A DNA stretch of 13,149 bases from Candidatus Iainarchaeum sp. Lineage in GTDB: Archaea > Iainarchaeota > Iainarchaeia > Iainarchaeales > GCA-2688035. Position numbers and translations under genes: made by a program. This document shows, piece after piece, positions 635 to 9,635 of the stretch. The notes beneath the pieces are model-generated. The model made no database searches, was not told the origin of the DNA, and saw nothing but the letters and a program-made list of their open reading frames with translations. How positions within the stretch are numbered: the stretch's first letter is position 1; each line of letters begins with the position of its first letter. The stretch covers positions 5,626-18,774 of the forward strand of contig JAQTNI010000026.1 of the NCBI GenBank assembly GCA_028713935.1. The letters are read 5' to 3'.

Positions 635-2503
635 TTAAATTCTTTCCGCTTCGAATACCTGCGGAAGTTTTCTTATTTTTTGCATTATTTTTTCCAGTTG
701 TTTTGCCTGCTGGATTCTGACATTGAACAATGCATTCACTGCCCTGCTTTTGTCCTCTTTTGCGCTTGTTGAAACAAGGCTTGCTCCCGAAGAAGAAATA
801 ATGTTTAAAATTCCCGGCAAAAGGCTCGAGGATTCCCTTGCCTTTACCTGTATTTTTACTGCAAAAAATTTTCCAGACCCCATTTCCCAGTCCATTTGCA
901 CAATTTTTTCTTTTCCCGCTTTCAGGATATTTTCGCAGTCCGCCTTGTGCGCAATGATTTTTCTTTTTGTGGTTTTCAATCCGATTATCTCTTCGCCCGG
1001 CAGCGGGTTGCAGCATTTTGCGATTTTTACATTGCTGTTTCCAGTTGTGACATTCTTTCCCGGCTTTGCTGTTTTTTTTATTGCAGGCAACTTCAGCCCG
1101 AGTTTTTGCCGTATTTTTGCCTTTGCTTTTTCAGATTTTGCAAATCCAAGCCAGTCCCTTTTTACCTGCACAGTTTGGCTTGGAATTATTTCTATTGTGT
1201 CAGCATTTTCAATTTTATAGTCAAGCGGGACTATTTTTCCATTGGCCTTGGCTTTCTGGCATTTTAAGCCAAGGTCAGAGTGGATTGCAAAAGCAAAGTC
1301 AACAGGAGTTGATTTTCCCGGCAGGACAACAACCTTGTTTTTCGGGGTTAATGCAAAAATTTTGTCTTCCCCAAAATCTATTTTCAATGAATCCACAAAT
1401 TTGCTTGTTTTTTTCTTTGCCCTGAACCCCTCAATTATTGCCTGGCCCCAGCCCAGTTTTGCGTCAAAATACCTGTTTGCAGGGTACTCTTTGTAAGCCC
1501 AGTGTGAGGCAAGGCCAGTTTCATTGTCCCAGTGCATTTCCATTGTTCTAATCTGTATTTCCACTGGCTTTTTTTGCCAGACAATCACTGTATGAAGCCC
1601 CCTGTAATTGTTTTCCTTCGGATTAATTATATAATCATCAAATTCCTGCGGCACAATTGTGTAATTTGAATGGATAACCCCGAGAATTTCATAGCATTGC
1701 TTTATTGAATCGCAAATTAGCCTTATGCCACGCAAATCCGGCAGTTCCTCGAATTTTTTTCCCAGATTCATTTTTTTGTAAATTGAAAAAAAATGCTTTG
1801 GCCTGCCTGAAATGCTTGCTTTTATTTTTTCTTTTTTTAAAAGGCAGCTTATTTCTTCCGCAATAATCCTGATTTCTTTTTCCCTCGTCCCCCTTTGCTG
1901 CCTGACAAGGGCTTTTATGTTGCCAAATTCTTTTGGGTTTAGTGCCTTGAAACAGGAATCTTCAAGCTGCCATTTCATTTGGTGAAGCCCAAGCTTGTCG
2001 CAGATTGGCACGAAAATTGCAAGGCAGCGCTTTGCAAAATTTTCTTTTGCGTTTTCATCAAGAACAGCATCGCTGCCTAGCGAGTCAAAAGCAGAGGCAA
2101 GTATAATCAGCACTGCCCTGATATCGCGTGCAACAGCCAGGATTACATTTGAAAGGAGCTCGTCTGAAAAATTCTGGAAATTTTTTTCCTCTATCTGGAA
2201 TGCCTTTGCGCATTCTTCCACAATTTCGGCTATTTCTTCGCCAAAAAAAGAATTTATTTCTTCTCTCTTTGTGTTTCCTGCGAGAAAAGTGTCGTGCAGC
2301 AATGCAGAGGCAATTGTGGCGTCGTCTGTGCCTGTCTGTGCCATTAGCAAGGCAACATTGAGAATGTGCTGTATTGCAGGCGAATCTTTTTTTGCAGCCT
2401 GTTTTTCCAGTGCAAACTCAAATGCTTTTTCCAAAAGCTTCCTGTCCGCTTTTGGATTGAATTTTCTTGCTTCTAGGAGGATATCTTCGAAATTTTTTTG
2501 CAT
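635..2503 (-). CDS. Long RelA/SpoT homologue (RSH): HD-like domain, (p)ppGpp synthetase, TGS, Zn-finger and ACT/RRM domains. The hydrolase motifs appear degenerate (RelA-like).
   Basis: 622-aa ORF. HD-like N-terminus with H46 and H70-D71 (ALLHDTF). Synthetase motifs: SGRPKHFFSIYKKM, DLRGIRLI, EFDDY, YRGLHTVI, VEIQIRTMEMHWDNETGLASHWAYKE. TGS: IFALTPKNKVVVLPGKSTPVDFAFAIHSDLG...ANGKIVPLDYKIENADTIEII. Zn-finger/CC: CCNPLPGEEIIG...IIAHKADCENI. C-terminal ACT/RRM-like: FAVKIQVKARESSSLLPGILNIISSSGASLVS. Confidence 0.9.
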   Translation of the reverse strand: MQKNFEDILLEARKFNPKADRKLLEKAFEFALEKQAAKKDSPAIQHILNVALLMAQTGTDDATIASALLHDTFLAGNTKREEINSFFGEEIAEIVEECAKAFQIEEKNFQNFSDELLSNVILAVARDIRAVLIILASAFDSLGSDAVLDENAKENFAKRCLAIFVPICDKLGLHQMKWQLEDSCFKALNPKEFGNIKALVRQQRGTREKEIRIIAEEISCLLKKEKIKASISGRPKHFFSIYKKMNLGKKFEELPDLRGIRLICDSIKQCYEILGVIHSNYTIVPQEFDDYIINPKENNYRGLHTVIVWQKKPVEIQIRTMEMHWDNETGLASHWAYKEYPANRYFDAKLGWGQAIIEGFRAKKKTSKFVDSLKIDFGEDKIFALTPKNKVVVLPGKSTPVDFAFAIHSDLGLKCQKAKANGKIVPLDYKIENADTIEIIPSQTVQVKRDWLGFAKSEKAKAKIRQKLGLKLPAIKKTAKPGKNVTTGNSNVKIAKCCNPLPGEEIIGLKTTKRKIIAHKADCENILKAGKEKIVQMDWEMGSGKFFAVKIQVKARESSSLLPGILNIISSSGASLVSTSAKEDKSRAVNALFNVRIQQAKQLEKIMQKIRKLPQVFEAERI

Positions 2504-3308: not shown

Positions 3309-3336
3309 AATTTAAAAAATTTTGAGGGTGTTTTGC

Positions 3337-4464
3337 ATGGTTGTTGCTTCCGATTTAATGGAAAAGGATTTTTTGAGAATTGAAAAGGACTCTGTTTTGT
3401 CGCAGGCCATTGGAAAAATGGTTTCTTCAAAAAAGCCTGCTGCGCTTGTTTTTGACAACAATGCTTTTGCAGGCCTGGTTTCAATAAAAATCCTTGCCAG
3501 GAAAACAATTTCAAATCCCTCTGAAACAAAAATCGGCTCTCTTGCGGAATCAATGCCAGTGCTTAAAGAAACAATGCCTATTGAAAAAATCGCTGACCTT
3601 CTTTTTTCAAGCGACGCAAGGGTTTTGCCGGTAGTGAAAAACAGCGCTGTTATTGGCGTGGTTTCCCTGGTTTCAGTTGCAAAGGCAATCGCCTCAATGC
3701 CTGAAATAAAAAAAATTCCCCTTTCAAAAATTGTCAGGAATGCGGTTGTCCTGACTGAAACAGATTCTGTTGGCAGGGCAATTGCATTGATGAAAGAAAC
3801 AAATTCCCTCAGCGCCGCTGTTGTTGATAAAAATTCAAGGCTGATTGGAGTGGTTTCCCTGGAAGAAATCGTGAAAAAATTCCTGCTTTTGCAGAAAGAA
3901 AAATACCGTGCCTCCAAATATTCAAGCGGCGGAACTTCAGGCTCAATAAACCCTGAAAAAGATTCCATGGCAAGCACTCTTGCCCGCAACGAAATGTCAG
4001 AAAATTTTGTTTCAATTGGGCCGAACGAAACAGTCCTGAGGGCTGCTTCTCTCATGGCTTCAAGCAATGCCAGTGAAATAATTGCAGAGGAAAATTCAAG
4101 GGTTCTTGGAATTGTTTCCGCAAAAAACATTCTGCCGTTGCTTCAGTCCCTGAAGCCAGCAAAAAACATTCAGATTGCAAAAATGCCGGTTGTAGATGAA
4201 ATTGACAAGGCAGAACTAATCGGGTTTATTGACAAGGTTTATGACAAAATTGCAAGGATTGTTCCAGGAGAATTTTCCCTGCATGTGCATTTTAAGTCCC
4301 ATGAAAAAGGCGGTGCAAGGAAAAAGCACACTGTTCACTTAAAACTGGTGACGCCAAAAAAAACAATTGTTTCAAAAGCAGTTGACTGGAAGCTCTTGAT
4401 TGCAGTTAAAAATGCAGCGGACTCCCTTGAAAGGGAAACAATTGGCTTTGTAAAAAGAAAATAG
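3337..4464 (+). CDS. Four tandem CBS domains (two Bateman modules) fused to a C-terminal HPF/RaiA (S30AE)-like domain
   Basis: I prefer ATG 3337 (MVVASDLMEKDF...) over the track's TTG 3322. The SD-like gagggtg lies at 3324-3330. There are four CBS-like repeats, each ending in h-G-h-V-S: AFAGLVSIKIL, VIGVVSLVSV, LIGVVSLEEI, VLGIVSAKNI. The last ~97 aa (about 4168-4461) are IQIAKMPVVDEIDKAELIGFIDKVYDKIARIVPGEFSLHVHFKSHEKGGARKKHTVHLKLVTPKKTIVSKAVDWKLLIAVKNAADSLERETIGFVKRK. By eye this aligns with the beta-alpha-beta-beta-beta-alpha pattern of E. coli HPF/YfiA (...DMYAAIDGLIDKLARQLTKHKDK). Confidence 0.8.
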   Translation: MVVASDLMEKDFLRIEKDSVLSQAIGKMVSSKKPAALVFDNNAFAGLVSIKILARKTISNPSETKIGSLAESMPVLKETMPIEKIADLLFSSDARVLPVVKNSAVIGVVSLVSVAKAIASMPEIKKIPLSKIVRNAVVLTETDSVGRAIALMKETNSLSAAVVDKNSRLIGVVSLEEIVKKFLLLQKEKYRASKYSSGGTSGSINPEKDSMASTLARNEMSENFVSIGPNETVLRAASLMASSNASEIIAEENSRVLGIVSAKNILPLLQSLKPAKNIQIAKMPVVDEIDKAELIGFIDKVYDKIARIVPGEFSLHVHFKSHEKGGARKKHTVHLKLVTPKKTIVSKAVDWKLLIAVKNAADSLERETIGFVKRK

Positions 4465-4470
4465 TTTTTT

Positions 4471-4710
4471 TTATCTTTTTTTCTTTTTTTTCTTTGCTTT
4501 TGAAGCCTTTTTTGGCCTTGCTTTTGCCTTCTGCTTTGATTTTTTGGCAGGTTTTTTCTTTGGCATTCTTGAAGGCTTTTTGCTGCGAACCTTTTTCCTG
4601 CGCTCCCTCATTGTGGCAGGCATGAACAGCTCCAAATCAGTGCTTTTTTCTTCGCGGAGCTCTCTTCGCATCTCATCAATAATGTCCTTGACTGTTTTCC
4701 GCTCTTCCAT
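4471..4710 (-). CDS. Small basic protein with an acidic/helical N-terminus and a poly-Lys tail (hypothetical; possibly nucleic-acid binding)
   Basis: 79-aa ORF: MEERKTVKDIIDEMRRELREEKSTDLELFMPATMRERRKKVRSKKPSRMPKKKPAKKSKQKAKARPKKASKAKKKKKKR. A TATA-like ttttatata on the minus strand (about 4753-4762) lies upstream. The low-complexity tail makes the coding status uncertain. Confidence 0.4.
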   Translation of the reverse strand: MEERKTVKDIIDEMRRELREEKSTDLELFMPATMRERRKKVRSKKPSRMPKKKPAKKSKQKAKARPKKASKAKKKKKKR

Positions 4711-4896
4711 AACCTAAACCTTCAAAATCGTAATTAGTAGTTTTTTTCTAGTATATAAAATTATGTTCCTCAAAGATGCCCCCAAAACAAGGTTATGTAG
4801 AATAATTCCCTGGCTTGCCAGCTGCAGAAAGCAAAAATTTCACCAACCTTATCTGCGGCGTAATCTTGGCCTGCGCCTTGCCTTTTTGGCTGCTAA

Positions 4897-5280
4897 CTAG
4901 CTTCCAATTCCTGCGCCAATAACTGCACTGCCTGCAATGCATTTTGTTTTGTGCTTTTGCTTGAATTGTTTTACTCTGTCAAGGCGTTTTGCCCAAACTG
5001 CATGTGTTTTTCCTCTTTTTGCATAATCCTGCTGTAATTCCCATGCAGCCATTTCACCAGCTGCATTGTGAAAGTTCGAGCTGGCAAAAAATTTTTTCCA
5101 TTCAGCGTTTGTTTTTCGCGAAACTAATTTTTCAGCTGCTTCAATGCCGGAATTTGTTAGTGCGCCACTGCCAAGGGCCATTCCTGCAATGACTGTGGCT
5201 TTTCTAATTCTCCGCCTTCTCGGGCTTTCAATTTTTTTCTTGGCATAGGTTAGGGCAGGGATTGCGTTTTGTTGTGTCAT
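4897..5280 (-). CDS. Hypothetical protein with two glycine-zipper-like hydrophobic segments (putative small membrane protein)
   Basis: The track ORF 4897..5346 begins at a TTG. In-frame ATGs lie at 5301 and 5280. The palindromic TATA-like gttaattaac (5302-5311) sits 23-30 nt upstream of ATG 5280, favouring MTQQNAIPAL... Segments VIAGMALGSGALTNSG and CIAGSAVIGAGIGS (extreme C-terminus) look like GxxxG/glycine-zipper helices flanking a ~75-aa K/R/Q/W-rich helical region. Confidence 0.55.
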   Translation of the reverse strand: MTQQNAIPALTYAKKKIESPRRRRIRKATVIAGMALGSGALTNSGIEAAEKLVSRKTNAEWKKFFASSNFHNAAGEMAAWELQQDYAKRGKTHAVWAKRLDRVKQFKQKHKTKCIAGSAVIGAGIGS

Positions 5281-5504
5281 TGTCAAATCAGCTATTAACA
5301 TGTTAATTAACTTTCCGCGGGGCTTTGCACGTAAAGTCAAGTTCAACGGTTCAAATCAAACTTGTCTTTGATAAAACTCCAAAATTTATCCCAAAAGTCA
5401 TCAATTTCTTTTGTTATTGCCAAAGACTAAAATCTGCCATAAACTCACTTCTTTCTCGCTGTGCTCCAATAAGGGCTTTTGCATTTTTGGGTCTCCAAAT
5501 TTGA

Positions 5505-6632
5505 TTAATATTTATTTAATATTTTTTTTAATTCTTTTAAAAATTCCCTGGTATCTGCAAAATAGTTAGGGTATGCTTTTTCAAGTTCTTTGGCGGTATC
5601 TACCCCAACAAGAACCACATCGTATTGCTTTTGTCCGTGATATTTTTTTTCAGCATTATTATACGCTTCAACTGCTTCTTTTTCTTCGCCCATTTTATAA
5701 GTTATAATTTTAAGTTCAGATGCAGTTTCTTCTGCAACATTTAGCTCCAATAAAAAGTATTGTGTCTGTTTCCTTTTATTTTTTTTTTCCTTTGACCCCT
5801 CTTTTGTGTCCCAATTTTTCATCGCATTTATTCCTCTTGTCCAGCTTTCAAGCCTATGCACTACATTTAATTCAGCTTCTTTCTTCTTGATTGCTAGATA
5901 AAGCTCTTTTTCATTATTTGGGGTGTTTGGGACAATGGGTAAGTTTTCGTTTTTAGCAAAAGCAGAACTTACGAGCTTAAAAAATTCTTTCCAATCCTCG
6001 CTTCCCTCGTTTGATTTTATTGCCTGCTTAGTAATAAACCCTGCTATTTCCACTGCTGTTGCCCATTGGTGTTGCAATTTAGACCTAAATTGAAGTTCAA
6101 TTAGCAGTCCATTATTAAAGATTTTTTTCCCTTTTTTATCACTATAATATTCATAAACAAGATGATAACTTCTGTAGCCATCCCTTTTTGGTTTTGAGAT
6201 ATAATCATTTGTTTTTACTTGTCTATGTTTTAAATTCACTTTTAGGTTGTAATACTGTTCATATAATCGCTTTGTTTCCATAACCGTTGGCATAATTGCC
6301 CGGCATCCGCCAATATCCTGCATATCGTAGAGTGTTATGGCATGTTTACGACCAGAATACTGCTTTGTAAGTTTGTAAAGAATAGCTGGAACACGTTTTA
6401 ATCTCTGCGCAGTTAATGCGTTTTTGTTTACCTCATTAGCTTTTGATTTTAGTCTTATTTTGAATACGTGCATCGGGTAACCGTGTGCTGCTCTCCAATT
6501 GTCCATAATTTTCATTGCTTCTTCCTTTTGTTCTTGAGAACTTGCAGGGTTTATTAGAACATTCCCGGCAGCAGTTATTTGTTCTTTGCTATATTCGGGT
6601 TTTATCCAATTCATGTTATACTTTCTGCGCAT
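5505..6632 (-). CDS. Stand-alone RelA/SpoT (RSH synthetase-fold) domain protein with a ~140-aa C-terminal extension. Candidate toxSAS, with CapRel-like fused architecture.
   Basis: 375-aa ORF. Synthetase-fold motifs: AQRLKRVPAILYKL, DMQDIGGCRAI, YISKPKRDGYRSYHLVYEY, LIELQFRSKLQHQWATAVEIAGF. There is no HD, TGS or ACT domain. The C-terminal ~140 aa (…YFLLELNVAEETASELKIITYKMGEEKEAVEAYNNAEKKYHGQKQYDVVLVGVDTAKELEKAYPNYFADTREFL…) is unassigned. A TATA-like tttaaata (minus strand, 6645-6638) is centred ~27 nt upstream of the second ATG (6614, MNWIKPEY...), which may be the true leaderless start. Confidence 0.85.
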   Translation of the reverse strand: MRRKYNMNWIKPEYSKEQITAAGNVLINPASSQEQKEEAMKIMDNWRAAHGYPMHVFKIRLKSKANEVNKNALTAQRLKRVPAILYKLTKQYSGRKHAITLYDMQDIGGCRAIMPTVMETKRLYEQYYNLKVNLKHRQVKTNDYISKPKRDGYRSYHLVYEYYSDKKGKKIFNNGLLIELQFRSKLQHQWATAVEIAGFITKQAIKSNEGSEDWKEFFKLVSSAFAKNENLPIVPNTPNNEKELYLAIKKKEAELNVVHRLESWTRGINAMKNWDTKEGSKEKKNKRKQTQYFLLELNVAEETASELKIITYKMGEEKEAVEAYNNAEKKYHGQKQYDVVLVGVDTAKELEKAYPNYFADTREFLKELKKILNKY

Positions 6633-6637
6633 AACAT

Positions 6638-6645
6638 TATTTAAA
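6638..6645 (-). promoter_or_regulatory. TATA-like box (TTTAAATA on minus strand) upstream of the RelA/SpoT-domain gene
   Basis: Its downstream edge lies 6 nt from ATG 6632 and 24 nt from the in-frame ATG 6614. The latter spacing matches the leaderless pattern seen elsewhere in the window. Confidence 0.3.
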
Positions 6646-6802
6646 CCTTAATATGCGCAATTAAACAAATTTTTTATTTTTGCCATAAAACATATTATAA
6701 TAAGCATAATGGCATTTATAAAAAATGTTATGTTTAAGTAAATAGACTAAACATTATTTTGCGCTGTTATTTTTTGGTATTAATTCTATTTTGTAGCTCT
6801 GC

Positions 6803-7101
6803 TTGGTCTGGAAACAGTGATTGAAAAAGGGTCACTGAAAAATGGACTTTGCTTCCTGAAAAAAGTTTAATCATTGCTTTTTCTCGCTTCCGGCCCTTCA
6901 AAGCATTTTTTGTTAAAGCCACCGTTGCTTTCTTCCGAACCTGGCGGGTTTCACTCCAGCAAAAAATCTCTGAAGACAGAAGGTCACTGTCCAAGCAATG
7001 GCTCTTTTCAGGGAACCAAGCCTCTTTTCCAGCATCAGCCCCGGCATAAAGCAGGTTTCCGGTTACAAGGCACTGCTGCCGCCCCAGCCTGACCCAGACA
7101 A
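6803..7101 (-). ncRNA. Signal recognition particle RNA (archaeal 7S/SRP RNA, ~300 nt); ends approximate
   Basis: A GC-richer patch with no convincing ORF. The minus strand reads GAGUGAAACCCGCCAGGUUCGGAAGAAAGCAACGGUGGC (about 6957-6918). This matches the universally conserved SRP helix-8 motif (…GUGAAC…CCAGGUC-GGAA-…GAGCA…) with a GGAA tetraloop. An Alu-domain-like UGUAACCGGAAAC lies near the 5' end (about 7067-7055). Nested long-range complements consistent with helices 1 and 5 are cauugcuu (7000-6993) with aagcaaug (6879-6872), ccugaaaa with uuuucagg, ggaaa with uuucc, and gucu with agac near the ends. Confidence 0.8.
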
Positions 7102-7160
7102 ATTGTGTTAAAACAATCTTTTAATTGTTTTGATGAACAATAATTTTTAGGGATTGGCTT

Positions 7161-7415
7161 ATGGAAAAAACTCCAATTGGAAAAATAACCCATTTTTTTG
7201 ACAAGATAGGAGTGGCTGTTTTGGAGCTTTCAGGGCCCTTAAAACAAGGCGAAAAAATTTCTGTTGAAGGCCATGCAGGGGAATTGTTTGAGCAGACAGT
7301 CGGCAGCATGCAGATTGACAAGAAAACAGTTGTTTCTGCAAAAAAAGGCCAGGCAATTGGCCTGAAATTAATTCAGCCAGTAAAACCAATTGCACAGGTA
7401 TTCAAAGTAAAATGA
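7161..7415 (+). CDS. Small EF-Tu domain II-like beta-barrel protein (translation elongation factor-like protein)
   Basis: 84 aa: MEKTPIGKITHFFDKIGVAVLELSGPLKQGEKISVEGHAGELFEQTVGSMQIDKKTVVSAKKGQAIGLKL... It matches the pattern of the widespread ~85-aa stand-alone GTP_EFTU_D2-like proteins (IGxVTHYFxKIGVAVxEL...GDxIxIxG...FEQxVxSMQI...V..AxxGxxVGxKV). Confidence 0.65.
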   Translation: MEKTPIGKITHFFDKIGVAVLELSGPLKQGEKISVEGHAGELFEQTVGSMQIDKKTVVSAKKGQAIGLKLIQPVKPIAQVFKVK

Positions 7416-7487
7416 AGAAAGCCCAAAATTGCCAGCATATGCCTTTTGTAGCTTCTGCTTACAGCAATTCCCCGAGGAATAATTTTT

Positions 7488-8441
7488 TCAGCTTTCCACG
7501 TCTTCTATTCCGTGCTCTGTTACCCTGAAAATTGCTTCCCCGTCAGGCAATGAAGGCGAATCAACGAGTTTTGCGACTCTTTTGTCTTCCTTGCTTTTGC
7601 GCAGGTAAATTCTTGTTTTGCTGTTATGCGCAACAATGTCCCCTCCAATCGGAGTTGTTGGGTCGCCAAACAAAATTCCCGGGTTTTGCATTACCTGGTT
7701 TGTAACTAAAACAGCAATGTTGTTCATTTCCGCAACTTTCATCAGTGCGTGCATGTGCTTGTTCAGTTTTTGCTGCCTGTCAGCCAACTGGCCCCTTCCA
7801 ATAAATTCAGACCTGAATTGCGCAGTAAGGGAATCAACTATTATCAATTTTATTCCTTTTTCCTTTATTATTTCATCGGCTTTTTCCGCAAGCAATATCT
7901 GGTGGTCTGAATTGTAAGCCCTTGCCACTAAAATGTTTTTCAAAACTTCTTCCTGGTTTAATCCAAGGTGTTCTGCAATTGCAATTATTCTTTCCGGCCT
8001 GAAGGAATTTTCCGCGTCAATCCAGAGGCATGGCCCGTTAAGCCCTCCTTTTTCAACTGGCAATTGGACTGTTACTGCTGCCTGAAAGCACACCTGTGTT
8101 TTGGCGCTTGCAAATTTTCCATAAATTTCTGTTATGCTTCCAGTTTCAATGCCGCCGCCAATCATTGAGTCAACGTCTTTGCTTCCTGTAGTAATTTTTC
8201 CAACAAGCTTTCTTCTTTCGGCAATTTTGTCTGCTGTTTCAAAGCCCATTTCAAGGGAGTCCCTTGCAGCCCTGATTGCTTTTGTTGCAGTTGCCTCTCC
8301 AAGGCCTGCTGCTTCAACAAGCTCCGCAGGGGAAGCAATTGCAATGCTTTCAACTGTTTTATAGCCTGCAGCCATTAGTTTTTCTGCTGCCTGTGTTCCA
8401 ATGCCAGGCAAATCCTCTATTTCCTTTATCTGTTTCCCCAT
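7488..8441 (-). CDS. radA: DNA repair and recombination protein RadA (archaeal Rad51/RecA homologue)
   Basis: N-terminal HhH domain: IEDLPGIGTQAAEKLMAAGYKTVESIAIASPAELVEAAGLGEATATKAI. RecA core: LIIVDSLTAQFRSEFIGRGQLADRQQKLNKHMHAL, VLVTNQV, PIGGDIVAHNSKTRIYLRKSKEDKRVAKLVDSPSLPDGEAIFRVTEHGI. I prefer ATG 8441 (MGKQIKEIEDLPGIG), which is preceded by a strong SD GGAGG (complement of 8449-8453, 7-nt spacer). The track's ATG 8522 would add 27 hydrophobic residues. Confidence 0.95.
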   Translation of the reverse strand: MGKQIKEIEDLPGIGTQAAEKLMAAGYKTVESIAIASPAELVEAAGLGEATATKAIRAARDSLEMGFETADKIAERRKLVGKITTGSKDVDSMIGGGIETGSITEIYGKFASAKTQVCFQAAVTVQLPVEKGGLNGPCLWIDAENSFRPERIIAIAEHLGLNQEEVLKNILVARAYNSDHQILLAEKADEIIKEKGIKLIIVDSLTAQFRSEFIGRGQLADRQQKLNKHMHALMKVAEMNNIAVLVTNQVMQNPGILFGDPTTPIGGDIVAHNSKTRIYLRKSKEDKRVAKLVDSPSLPDGEAIFRVTEHGIEDVES

Positions 8442-8643: not shown

Positions 8644-9237
8644 TTGGCGCGAACCATTACTTTGTCTGTTTCTGATAATACTTTTGAATTGATGCGGAAG
8701 CATCCCGAAATCAATTATTCTGAACTGGCCAGGCAGAGGATTAACGGGTATCTGGCTTCCCTTTCCGAGAAAAGGGTTGTTTCTTTCGATTTTTTAGTCC
8801 TGAAGGATTTGATTTTTGCTCCGGAAAAAATTGTTGAAATTCATAATAGGATTGAGAAGAACCACAAGATGATGCGCACTCTTTCTTGGGTTGAATCTGT
8901 TTTTGACCTGGATTTGTTTGACAGCCTGTCAAAGTTTTTGCACGAGTTTGCAAGGGTTCATCCTTTTGAAGATGGCAATAAAAGAGCTTCTTTTGTCTGC
9001 GTTGATGCCTTTTTGCGGCTGAATTTTATGAAGCTTAGAATTAACCAGTCTTCAAAAAAAACTACTGATGATGAAAAGTTTTTTTGGCAGAACGCAAACA
9101 TGCAGAAGCCGCTTGATGAAATAAGGATTTTCCTCAAAAAGCATGTTGTTGAATCCCGAAGGCCAAAAAGCGTTGAGGCAGCTGTTTTTGATTCAATCAG
9201 CGAAAACAAAATTCTGCTGGAACGCCTTGCCCTTTAA
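8644..9237 (+). CDS. Fic/Doc-family protein (Doc-type HxFxDGNKR motif) with an N-terminal ribbon-helix-helix-like segment
   Basis: The Doc-type motif HPFEDGNKR lies at 8959-8985 (residues 106-114), followed by ASFVCVDAFLRLNF. The N-terminus MARTITLSVSDNTFELMRKHPEINYSELARQRINGYL has the strand-helix-helix pattern of CopG/Arc/MetJ RHH domains. The start is TTG 8644, 5 nt after the SD-like aggtg (8634-8638). The first in-frame ATG would delete the RHH strand. Confidence 0.8.
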   Translation: MARTITLSVSDNTFELMRKHPEINYSELARQRINGYLASLSEKRVVSFDFLVLKDLIFAPEKIVEIHNRIEKNHKMMRTLSWVESVFDLDLFDSLSKFLHEFARVHPFEDGNKRASFVCVDAFLRLNFMKLRINQSSKKTTDDEKFFWQNANMQKPLDEIRIFLKKHVVESRRPKSVEAAVFDSISENKILLERLAL

Positions 9238-9635
9238 TGCTTTCTAATCAGGACAACAAACAGTTCATCCAAAGTCAATCCTTGTTTTGACAGGAATTCC
9301 TTGATTTCTTTTTCAGTGTTTTCCCTGTCTGCAGTCAAATATTGGTGTGTTGCAACAATGTTTTTTTGTTCCTTGAGCATTTTTGTCTGGCACGAGTCTG
9401 TCCATTCGTCAATAATAATTTTGTTTTGATTGTTTTTTGCTATTGCACTGGAAAGCATTGTTTTTTCGGAAAACGGCAGTCCAAAAATAACTATATTTTT
9501 TGTTTGCACTGCAAGCTCTGAAGCAATAACACAAAGAAGCCTATTATTTTCAATCTCCAAAGTTTTAACAATCCTGAAACCAAAACTTTTTTCCATTTCA
9601 AAATTCTTGAAAAACAGGCTTAAATGCATTTTCAA
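9234..9635 (-). CDS. Hypothetical protein (133 aa; possible start at ATG 9596)
   Basis: An ORF with typical local codon composition. Its 3' end overlaps the Doc-like gene's stop by 4 nt in convergent orientation. It contains NIVIFGLPFSEKTMLSSAIAK...KIIIDEW. I recognise no confident family. Confidence 0.5.
   Translation of the reverse strand: MKMHLSLFFKNFEMEKSFGFRIVKTLEIENNRLLCVIASELAVQTKNIVIFGLPFSEKTMLSSAIAKNNQNKIIIDEWTDSCQTKMLKEQKNIVATHQYLTADRENTEKEIKEFLSKQGLTLDELFVVLIRKH

Follow-up and report, generated by a model that had tools for sequence, protein, structure and literature searches.

Background

The best-matching described relative of the gene analysed here is CapRelSJ46 of the Salmonella phage SJ46 (Protein Data Bank (PDB) entries 7ZTB and 9ERV), a 373-residue toxic small alarmone synthetase (toxSAS) in which toxin and antitoxin are fused in a single polypeptide. 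The gene in question is a CapRel-like open reading frame (ORF) at 5505..6632, minus strand, of a 13,149-nucleotide stretch of DNA from the archaeon Candidatus Iainarchaeum sp. (assembly GCA_028713935.1, contig JAQTNI010000026.1, positions 5,626 to 18,774), which is called the window below. An earlier reading of this DNA, made from its letters alone (the original prediction), proposed that the ORF encodes a fused toxSAS closest to CapRel, and remarked that toxSAS and CapRel systems had been characterised in bacteria and phages only. The literature that we consulted agrees with this remark: CapRel has been described in Cyanobacteria, Actinobacteria, Proteobacteria, Spirochaetes, Bacteroidetes, Firmicutes and phages.

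Zhang et al. (PMC9712102) described the pseudo-zinc-finger domain of CapRel as a three-stranded sheet with a helix between β7 and β8 and a C-terminal helical extension. CapRelSJ46 was found in an open form in its crystals and AlphaFold predicted a closed state for it; its residue L280 is required for activation by the capsid protein (PMC9712102). This same protein can sense two unrelated phage proteins (PMC11578894).

Sister systems are organised differently. PhRel/Gp29-Gp30 of the mycobacteriophage Phrann and the bicistronic CapRel of actinobacteria have a separate antitoxin that is homologous to the CapRel C-terminal domain (PMC9712102). Compared by their descriptions, these are two-gene systems, whereas the window gene encodes one polypeptide. 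The small alarmone synthetases (SAS) of the RelQ/RelP type (YwaC/YjbM) have the same catalytic fold as the window protein, but just their core of about 120 residues can be aligned with it. RelQ and RelP are tetrameric (p)ppGpp synthetases that have no C-terminal sensor domain.

Candidatus Iainarchaeum is placed by NCBI in the Nanobdellati, that is, in DPANN. DPANN genomes have few CRISPR and restriction-modification systems and are enriched in compact single-gene candidates, among which a CapRel-like one is not named (PMC12988326). In the texts and text supplements searched, we found no paper that names the PADLOC candidate system PDC-S33, to which the window protein belongs (see below), or that links CapRel or PDC-S33 to DPANN or to archaea, although automated PADLOC and DefenseFinder surveys have probably counted such hits.

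A full-length homologue of CapRelSJ46

The ORF is real. As listed among the ORFs of the window, it has 375 codons (the numbering used throughout) and carries the motifs RLKRV, DIGGCRAI, KRDGYRSYHLVY and ELQFRSKLQHQWATAVE, from which the original prediction had read a synthetase fold followed by an unassigned C-terminal region. Indeed, the Pfam family RelA_SpoT (PF04607) matches residues 76-192 only (E 3e-14), leaving the C-terminal 140-180 residues or so without a Pfam assignment. Translation most likely starts at M7 (ATG at 6614-6612), which would give a protein of 369 residues encoded by 5505..6614 on the minus strand. This start is favoured because M7 and W9 are invariant in an alignment of 47 homologues, in which residues 1-6 are unconserved, because the NCBI protein from the same gene (MDD5163493.1, 'Candidatus ainarchaeum sp.') has 369 residues, and because a TATA-like sequence, TTTAAATA, can be read at 6638..6645 (6645-6638 on the minus strand), about 27 nucleotides 5' of the M7 codon. 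The TATA-like TTTAAATA lies within a segment (6615-6764) that is conserved at the nucleotide level with the closest relative, L003, and suggests a dedicated promoter from which a leaderless archaeal mRNA would be made.

The kinship to CapRel extends over the whole protein. In a phmmer search of the PDB, the best matches were the two CapRelSJ46 entries, over residues 11-369 (E 2.7e-43), followed by RelQ/RelP-type proteins with E 2.4e-9 or worse over the core of about 120 residues only. PhRel, PhRel2, FaRel, FaRel2 and Tas1 were absent among the PDB sequence matches up to E 10, in a comparison that included no reference sequences or profile models for those subfamilies. A profile built from the 47 close homologues scored 217.7 bits against CapRel and at most 56 bits against RelQ/RelP proteins, and BLASTP aligned the window protein end to end with the CapRelSJ46 gene product of phage SJ46 (32% identity, E 2e-46). 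The C-terminal region is related to the CapRel antitoxin domain in its own right: residues 206-375 alone match SJ46 residues 205-373 (28% identity, E 9e-13), and residues 235-375 alone retrieve CapRel as their sole match in the entire PDB (E 7e-4). The protein also matches PHROG 4773 over its full length (E 1.8e-95). Membership among the housekeeping SAS finds no footing, the NCBIfam RelQ equivalog NF053588 being reached with 42.2 bits against a cut-off of 320 bits and some 180 C-terminal residues being present in addition to the core. Judged by these alignments, the ORF product is homologous to the fused toxSAS CapRelSJ46 from end to end, which bears out the CapRel-like reading of the original prediction.

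A PADLOC scan returned the candidate single-gene system PDC-S33 (model PDLC04999), with residues 7-373 aligned to model positions 1-343 of 349 (E 1.9e-111, 370.9 bits). The match is thus full-length, but PDC-S33 itself is an unnamed and unvalidated candidate, and its equation with CapRel is drawn here from the shared protein match, not from PADLOC documentation. By its residues (see below), the PDC-S33 candidate is to be regarded as a bona fide CapRel in which the mechanistic positions are intact, which would provide it with a concrete and testable mechanism.

Predicted structure

An AlphaFold2 model built on the 47-sequence alignment reached a pLDDT of 87 and a pTM of 0.85. When it was compared to known structures with Foldseek, 9ERV and 7ZTB ranked first (E about 1e-21, TM-score 0.65-0.72, 367-372 aligned columns), and RelQ/RelP structures matched with E about 1e-7 (near 4e-7) and a TM-score to the target of about 0.7. 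The root-mean-square deviation (RMSD) to 9ERV and 7ZTB is about 10 Å despite the good TM-score, as would be expected if the domains were re-oriented, a closed model being superposed on open crystals.

The predicted fold can be laid out along the minus strand as follows. The N-terminal helical region (residues 7-68; 6429..6614) comprises helices 16-27, 33-48 and 51-68 and aligns with SJ46 residues 12-70. The toxSYNTH core, a RelA/SpoT nucleotidyl/pyrophosphotransferase domain (residues 69-205; 6018..6428), includes the PF04607 match and contains R77, R111, Y153 and the motif ELQFRS. Three anchor helices (212-228, 241-255 and 257-269) then lead from the core to the sensor (residues 206-270; 5823..6017; aligned with SJ46 205-270). 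They are followed by a lysine-rich, indel-rich linker (residues 271-290; 5763..5822), in which pLDDT falls below 50 at residues 275-286 and which has the highest entropy of the alignment (1.9 bits, 41% gaps). The pseudo-zinc-finger-like sensor/antitoxin domain (residues 291-344; 5601..5762) is delimited by the topology of the model, the Foldseek match and the invariant residues V340, L341 and G343. It is joined by a short hinge (residues 345-360; 5553-5600) to a C-terminal helical extension (residues 361-375; 5508..5552; helix 362-374, aligned with SJ46 359-368). The hinge contains YPNY (Y354 and Y357; 5562..5573), which corresponds to the YXXY autoinhibition motif and lies in the heptapeptide KAYPNYF, the same in the window protein and in CapRelSJ46. 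Thus, the model runs from the synthetase core through three helices, strands 291-298 and 306-312, helix 317-330, strand 337-344 and the hinge to the last helix, and its C-terminal part is predicted to have the pseudo-zinc-finger topology of CapRelSJ46.

Active-site and autoinhibitory residues

The mutagenesis of CapRelSJ46 (PMC9712102) made it possible to assign roles to individual positions, the conservation of which was scored in the alignment of 47 homologues. R77 and R111, equivalent to SJ46 R79 and R116, which coordinate the adenine of ATP, are invariant, and so are Y153, equivalent to Y155 of the G-loop, and E179, Q181 and R183. Also invariant are Y354 and Y357, the counterparts of Y352 and Y355 that form the YXXY plug, together with P355 between them. 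Among the interface residues, V340 and L341 (SJ46 V338 and L339) are invariant; G343, equally invariant, stands in place of A341; A75 (A/V/S) and A353 (A/S/G), equivalent to A77 and A351, vary. On this comparison, the catalytic, ATP-binding and autoinhibitory residues are all intact in the window protein.

Among members of the clade, conservation is highest in the toxSYNTH core and lowest in the N-terminal helices and in the linker with the pseudo-zinc-finger domain, but the contrast between domains is modest (0.68 against 0.54 identity, in pairs that are 55-70% identical overall). The linker 271-290 is the most variable stretch and aligns, uncertainly, with the SJ46 segment that holds L280. 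The pseudo-zinc-finger domain is just 16% identical to that of CapRelSJ46, compared to 38% for the core, so that the trigger must differ from that of SJ46. The likeness between the two proteins therefore embraces their length (369-375 against 373 residues), domain order, predicted fold, the ATP arginines, the G-loop tyrosine, the interface V/L pair and the encoding by a single gene without a partner; they differ in the sequence of the sensor domain, in the lysine-rich linker found where SJ46 has its L280 segment, in G343 and in their hosts, the window gene residing in an archaeon, not in a bacterium or prophage, and outside any prophage or defence island.

An archaeal host and a clade spread through DPANN and CPR genomes

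The original prediction had taken the carrier to be an archaeon, and the contig is indeed archaeal: the archaeal signal recognition particle (SRP) RNA, RadA (470 bits against a cut-off of 259) and replication factor A lie on one side of the CapRel-like gene, and an archaeal triosephosphate isomerase (TIM; 229 against 132 bits) on the other side of it on the same contig. The SRP RNA gene (6825..7099, minus strand), which scores 123.8 bits with Rfam RF01857 (gathering score 96.5), shares the strand of the CapRel-like gene and lies 192 nucleotides upstream of it. An independent Logan assembly (L001) links the CapRel-like gene to the CBS-domain gene of the window.

The gene is one copy of a clade that is found in hundreds of DPANN, other archaeal and candidate phyla radiation (CPR) genomes, and no isolated archaeal case. 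When 5.8 billion proteins were searched by a word index, 5817 matched at E <=1e-5. Leaving aside the cluster of the query itself, the best 120 of these have 51-68% identity to the window protein; every taxon-named match among them is named as archaeal, and those named more finely than 'archaeon' belong to DPANN groups (Iain-, Micr-, Woese-, Nano- and Aenigmarchaeota). With one genome taken per GTDB species, at least 485 stretches encode relatives, a count that is specific to this clade since the search patterns were derived from it. The best 80 of these at least 485 stretches, from GTDB species representatives, are the related loci referred to below. By record title, 69 of them are archaeal, 8 are metagenome-assembled genomes (MAGs) of CPR/Patescibacteria and 3 are MAGs with another bacterial label. 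DPANN accounts for most of the archaeal records, among which there are also two Methanoperedens, several 'Methanosarcinales' MAGs and a complete Woesearchaeota chromosome (CP060218.1); genes found beside the archaeal copies include those for archaeal LonB, ribosomal P-proteins and deoxyhypusine synthase. Four of the CPR loci are truly bacterial, as they carry bacterial elongation factor G and ComEC alongside.

This DPANN, Methanoperedens and CPR clade is tight, at about 45-70% identity. Of the clusters in a library built at 50% identity, 1207 match at E <=1e-30, and the clade collapses into about 3-5 of the top ones; it is therefore a branch of little depth within a large family that is mainly bacterial. 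CapRels from bacterial plasmids and from phages have 24-42% identity to the window protein. Those borne by plasmids of Nostoc commune, Acinetobacter baumannii, Aliarcobacter and E. coli resemble it over their full length, at 33-42% identity, whereas the DPANN/CPR clade forms a separate tight group with a taxonomic range of its own. In a neighbour-joining tree rooted on the synthetase domain of the long RelA/SpoT homologue (RSH) of the window and including few bacterial sequences, all DPANN, CPR and Methanoperedens sequences fall in one clade, in which the phyla are mingled throughout. The four CPR sequences that are bona fide branch at its base; the outgroups closest to it are Nostoc and Aliarcobacter and, after these, Acinetobacter, with SJ46 and E. 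coli farther away. The clade is thus nested among the few bacterial CapRels sampled. A bacterial origin is likely, though unproven on a tree that lacks support values and in which bacteria are sparsely represented.

Among viruses, GenBank phages carry bacterial CapRels only, and among the best 80 of 132 IMG/VR matches, a single one exceeds 40% identity. This copy of the DPANN clade (L093; IMGVR_UViG_GVMAG-S-1041346-124_000001, match 4508-5572, 53% identity) is labelled as a giant-virus MAG. Its scanned ORFs include HEPN, a Schlafen-like helicase, RadC, a YhcG/DUF1016 nuclease and a CARF/HTH regulator and no viral hallmark genes, so that the contig has the look of a defence island from a cellular genome.

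A mobile, AT-rich, gene-sized cassette

That the gene is richer in AT than its neighbours, as had been estimated from a few hand-counted lines, was borne out by computation. Its GC content is 0.341 and its GC content at third codon positions (GC3) 0.287, the lowest GC3 of all ORFs tabulated; the other 12 have GC 0.39-0.44 (0.33 for one small ORF) and GC3 0.34-0.46, with a mean GC3 of 0.396 ± 0.019 for the seven neighbours of at least 150 residues. The same bias recurs elsewhere: over 66 loci, the gene lies below its flanking genes in GC in 85% and in GC3 in 82% (mean GC3 difference -0.078, Wilcoxon 2e-8).

When the window was compared by blastn with all fetched related loci, 89 of 89 matches fell inside 5499-6764, which delimits a mobile cassette (5499..6764, minus strand) made of the gene and about 130-150 nucleotides upstream of it. 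The closest relative, L003 (68% protein identity), is 71.8% identical at the nucleotide level over 5505-6764, from the stop codon to about 130 nucleotides upstream of the ORF, and has wholly different neighbours (large surface proteins and glyceraldehyde-3-phosphate dehydrogenase). Gene-sized cassettes are also shared by two other pairs of loci. The Patescibacteria-labelled locus L041 (9806-11107) and the Woesearchaeota-labelled L048 (2694-3994) share 1302 nucleotides at 94% identity, comprising the gene, about 195 nucleotides upstream and about 40 downstream, between unrelated flanks; either the cassette has passed between the two domains very recently, or one of the records has been wrongly binned or labelled. 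Two Methanoperedens MAGs (L004, 3258-4461; L007, 9861-11064) share 1204 nucleotides at 94.7%, again between unrelated flanks; over the two pairs, the shared upstream part measures about 140-195 nucleotides. The CapRel-like gene thus behaves as a mobile, AT-rich, gene-sized cassette. In the Woesearchaeota-labelled locus L022, the copy is flanked by the same two gene families (16 and 17) as in L041.

No integrase was found among the window ORFs, a search of 4400-7500 for flanking direct or inverted repeats of the att type gave just short matches at chance level, and exact look-ups of both neighbours, made to find strain variants without the gene, returned the same sample only, with the same arrangement or fragments. 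The original prediction had seen in the adjacent SRP RNA gene a locus where foreign DNA is often inserted. The adjacency itself holds, at 192 nucleotides, but it is not conserved: SRP RNA was found in 0 of 8 related loci, the closest relative L003 included, so that the idea of a conserved site of insertion there was rejected. In 6 of 60 loci, a tRNA gene is no more than 300 nucleotides away (L007, L022, L027, L032, L041 and L055, in the set L003-L073) where about 1.2 would be expected (p about 0.001), an enrichment that is only suggestive because the 300-nucleotide limit was set post hoc. Taken with the SRP RNA of the window, it hints at insertion beside structured-RNA genes.

Gene neighbourhoods point to a single-gene system. 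No gene family other than the CapRel-like gene is common to more than 5 of the 80 related loci, and the immediate neighbours vary in size, strand and family. Since no partner gene is conserved, the CapRel-like gene stands as a system by itself. A defence-island context was not found among 149 neighbours at 25 loci, for which Pfam gives mostly housekeeping functions and PADLOC few matches, mostly to generic domains. This agrees with the remarks that DPANN and CPR genomes seldom form defence islands and favour compact single-gene systems (PMC12259885; PMC12988326).

Possible mechanism and alternative explanations

We consider it probable that the gene encodes a fused, single-polypeptide CapRel-type toxin-antitoxin which this Iainarchaeota (DPANN) archaeon acquired horizontally as an AT-rich, gene-sized cassette with its own promoter. 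Its tRNA pyrophosphorylation, its activation by a virus protein and its antiviral function are inferred by homology. By analogy with CapRelSJ46, the C-terminal domain would fold back at rest, and the YPNY hinge would insert between R77 and R111 and block the ATP site. Upon infection, a viral protein (in bacteria, the major capsid or another phage protein) would bind the pseudo-zinc-finger domain and keep the enzyme open, which could then move pyrophosphate from ATP to the 3' CCA ends of tRNA; translation would stop and the infection abort. Kurata and colleagues reportedly found such a pyrophosphorylation of the tRNA 3' CCA end for toxSAS in 2021. The CCA end of tRNA is universal, so that the mechanism is possible in principle in archaea, and a toxin that modifies it might work across domains.

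We give even chances to a broader proposal, namely that a CapRel-type, virus-sensing tRNA pyrophosphokinase is a widespread single-gene immune sensor of DPANN and CPR episymbionts and of Methanoperedens, exchanged among them as a promoter-plus-gene cassette. If this were true, no abortive-infection system that targets tRNA would have been shown in archaea before it, and its pseudo-zinc-finger domain could serve to fish for structural proteins of the largely unknown DPANN and CPR viruses. The gene offers a starting point in the search for viral triggers in these organisms, of whose viruses hardly any are known.

Several points weigh against the main reading, a fused CapRel-type toxin-antitoxin that acts in the way described. 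Guilt by association gives a defence role no support, the neighbours being mostly housekeeping genes. The sensor domain is just modestly more variable than the core, a weaker contrast than an intense arms race would lead one to expect. The substrate (tRNA, or ATP/ADP/GTP), the toxicity, the autoinhibition and the trigger are all extrapolated from a protein that is 32% identical, and 16% identical in the sensor domain. The apparent closed state of the AlphaFold2 model was read from the RMSD, not from coordinates, and the neighbour-joining tree, with no support values and few bacterial sequences, includes no PhRel or FaRel references.

Some of these same observations would suit a selfish fused toxin-antitoxin cassette, kept by horizontal spread or addiction and devoid of an antiviral role: the unit is mobile and gene-sized, its GC is low relative to that of its hosts, it lies outside defence islands, and its sensor domain varies only modestly more than the core. 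However, a fused polypeptide cannot exploit the differential decay of an antitoxin, which is the classical mechanism of addiction, and all the fused CapRels that have been characterised defend against phages (PMC9712102). In addition, the invariance of the catalytic and autoinhibitory residues in 47 homologues argues for selection on a regulated activity, and the copy in L093 sits among genes for HEPN, a Schlafen-like helicase and a nuclease. We therefore hold this explanation to be unlikely.

Somewhat less likely still is a regulated alarmone synthetase that would make (p)ppGpp or (pp)pApp for the control of stress or growth in small-genome symbionts, perhaps together with the long RSH encoded 3 kb away. 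The RelA/SpoT fold does match RelQ/RelP structures, other toxSAS (FaRel, Tas1) make (pp)pApp, and the long RSH of the window lacks the ED pair of its hydrolase motif. Against this, the similarity to RelQ/RelP is far weaker than that to CapRel (55 against 218 bits, and 42 against 320 bits for NF053588), the entire CapRel-specific C-terminal apparatus of autoinhibition is conserved, and a patchily distributed, mobile gene whose GC is off from that of its host is unlike a housekeeping regulator.

A two-gene toxSAS, with the antitoxin provided by the ORF at 4897..5346 or by another neighbour, is very improbable and largely refuted. The ORF (134 or 149 residues) is on the same strand, 158-203 nucleotides downstream of the CapRel-like gene, and has no known domain. 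But its GC of 0.424 is host-like, it lies outside the conserved cassette, no homologue of it is found beside any of the 80 related genes, and the protein's own C-terminal domain is homologous to the antitoxin domain of CapRel. On the other side, the 75-residue upstream ORF overlaps the SRP RNA gene. The original prediction had likewise seen no convincing antitoxin OR​F adjacent to the gene, and the downstream candidate turns out to be unique to this contig.

Bacterial contamination or a chimeric assembly is the least credible explanation of all: although CapRel was described from bacteria and phages, the GC of the gene differs from that of its flanks and the SRP RNA is interrupted by a break in a short-read assembly of this sample, archaeal genes lie on both sides of the gene on one contig (SRP RNA, RadA and replication factor A on one, archaeal TIM on the other), L001 independently joins it to the CBS gene, and close homologues are found on long archaeal contigs with archaeal neighbour genes, the Woesearchaeota chromosome CP060218.1 among them.

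Other genes of the window

The break just mentioned is seen in the Logan assemblies L001 and L092 (SRR22315509, the source sample). It falls within the SRP RNA gene and separates the CapRel cassette from the side that bears a downstream 84-residue ORF and RadA. It could reflect strain heterogeneity at the junction or mere low coverage.

The long RSH (635..2503, minus strand) is complete, with HD, RelA_SpoT, TGS and ACT domains (TIGR00691, 518.6 bits). It lies 3.0 kb from the CapRel-like gene and is remote from it in sequence (29% over 84 residues, E 3e-5). The two genes are thus distinct members of the RSH superfamily, as first proposed, and a recent duplication of the long RSH was ruled out as the source of the CapRel-like gene on the strength of this distance. 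A 2011 survey had found long RSHs to be lacking in archaea. The hydrolase motif of this one reads ALLHDTFLAG, where that of M. tuberculosis Rel reads ALLHDTVEDT; the hydrolase may be inactive, since the ED pair of HDxxED is missing.

In the surroundings of the CapRel-like gene, the SRP RNA and the 4897..5346 ORF of no known function are directly adjoining, and the CBS gene and RadA lie farther away. The former of these two (3322..4464, plus strand) encodes a triple-CBS-domain protein, the C-terminal part of which has a weak match, under the cut-off, to the ribosome hibernation family S30AE (E 0.0013).

The sole other defence-like gene in the window is an ORF of the Doc/Fic family, 2 kb away from the CapRel-like gene (8644..9237, plus strand; Pfam Fic 4.4e-9, TIGR01550 Doc 4e-7, PADLOC PDC-S04 1.7e-6), with the Doc-type motif HPFEDGNKR. 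It overlaps by 4 nucleotides a convergent ORF of 133 residues (9234..9635, minus strand; GC 0.331) that has no known function. By eye, about 45 residues at the N-terminus of the Doc/Fic protein are reminiscent of a ribbon-helix-helix segment; if so, the window would encode another fused toxin-antitoxin besides the CapRel-like one.

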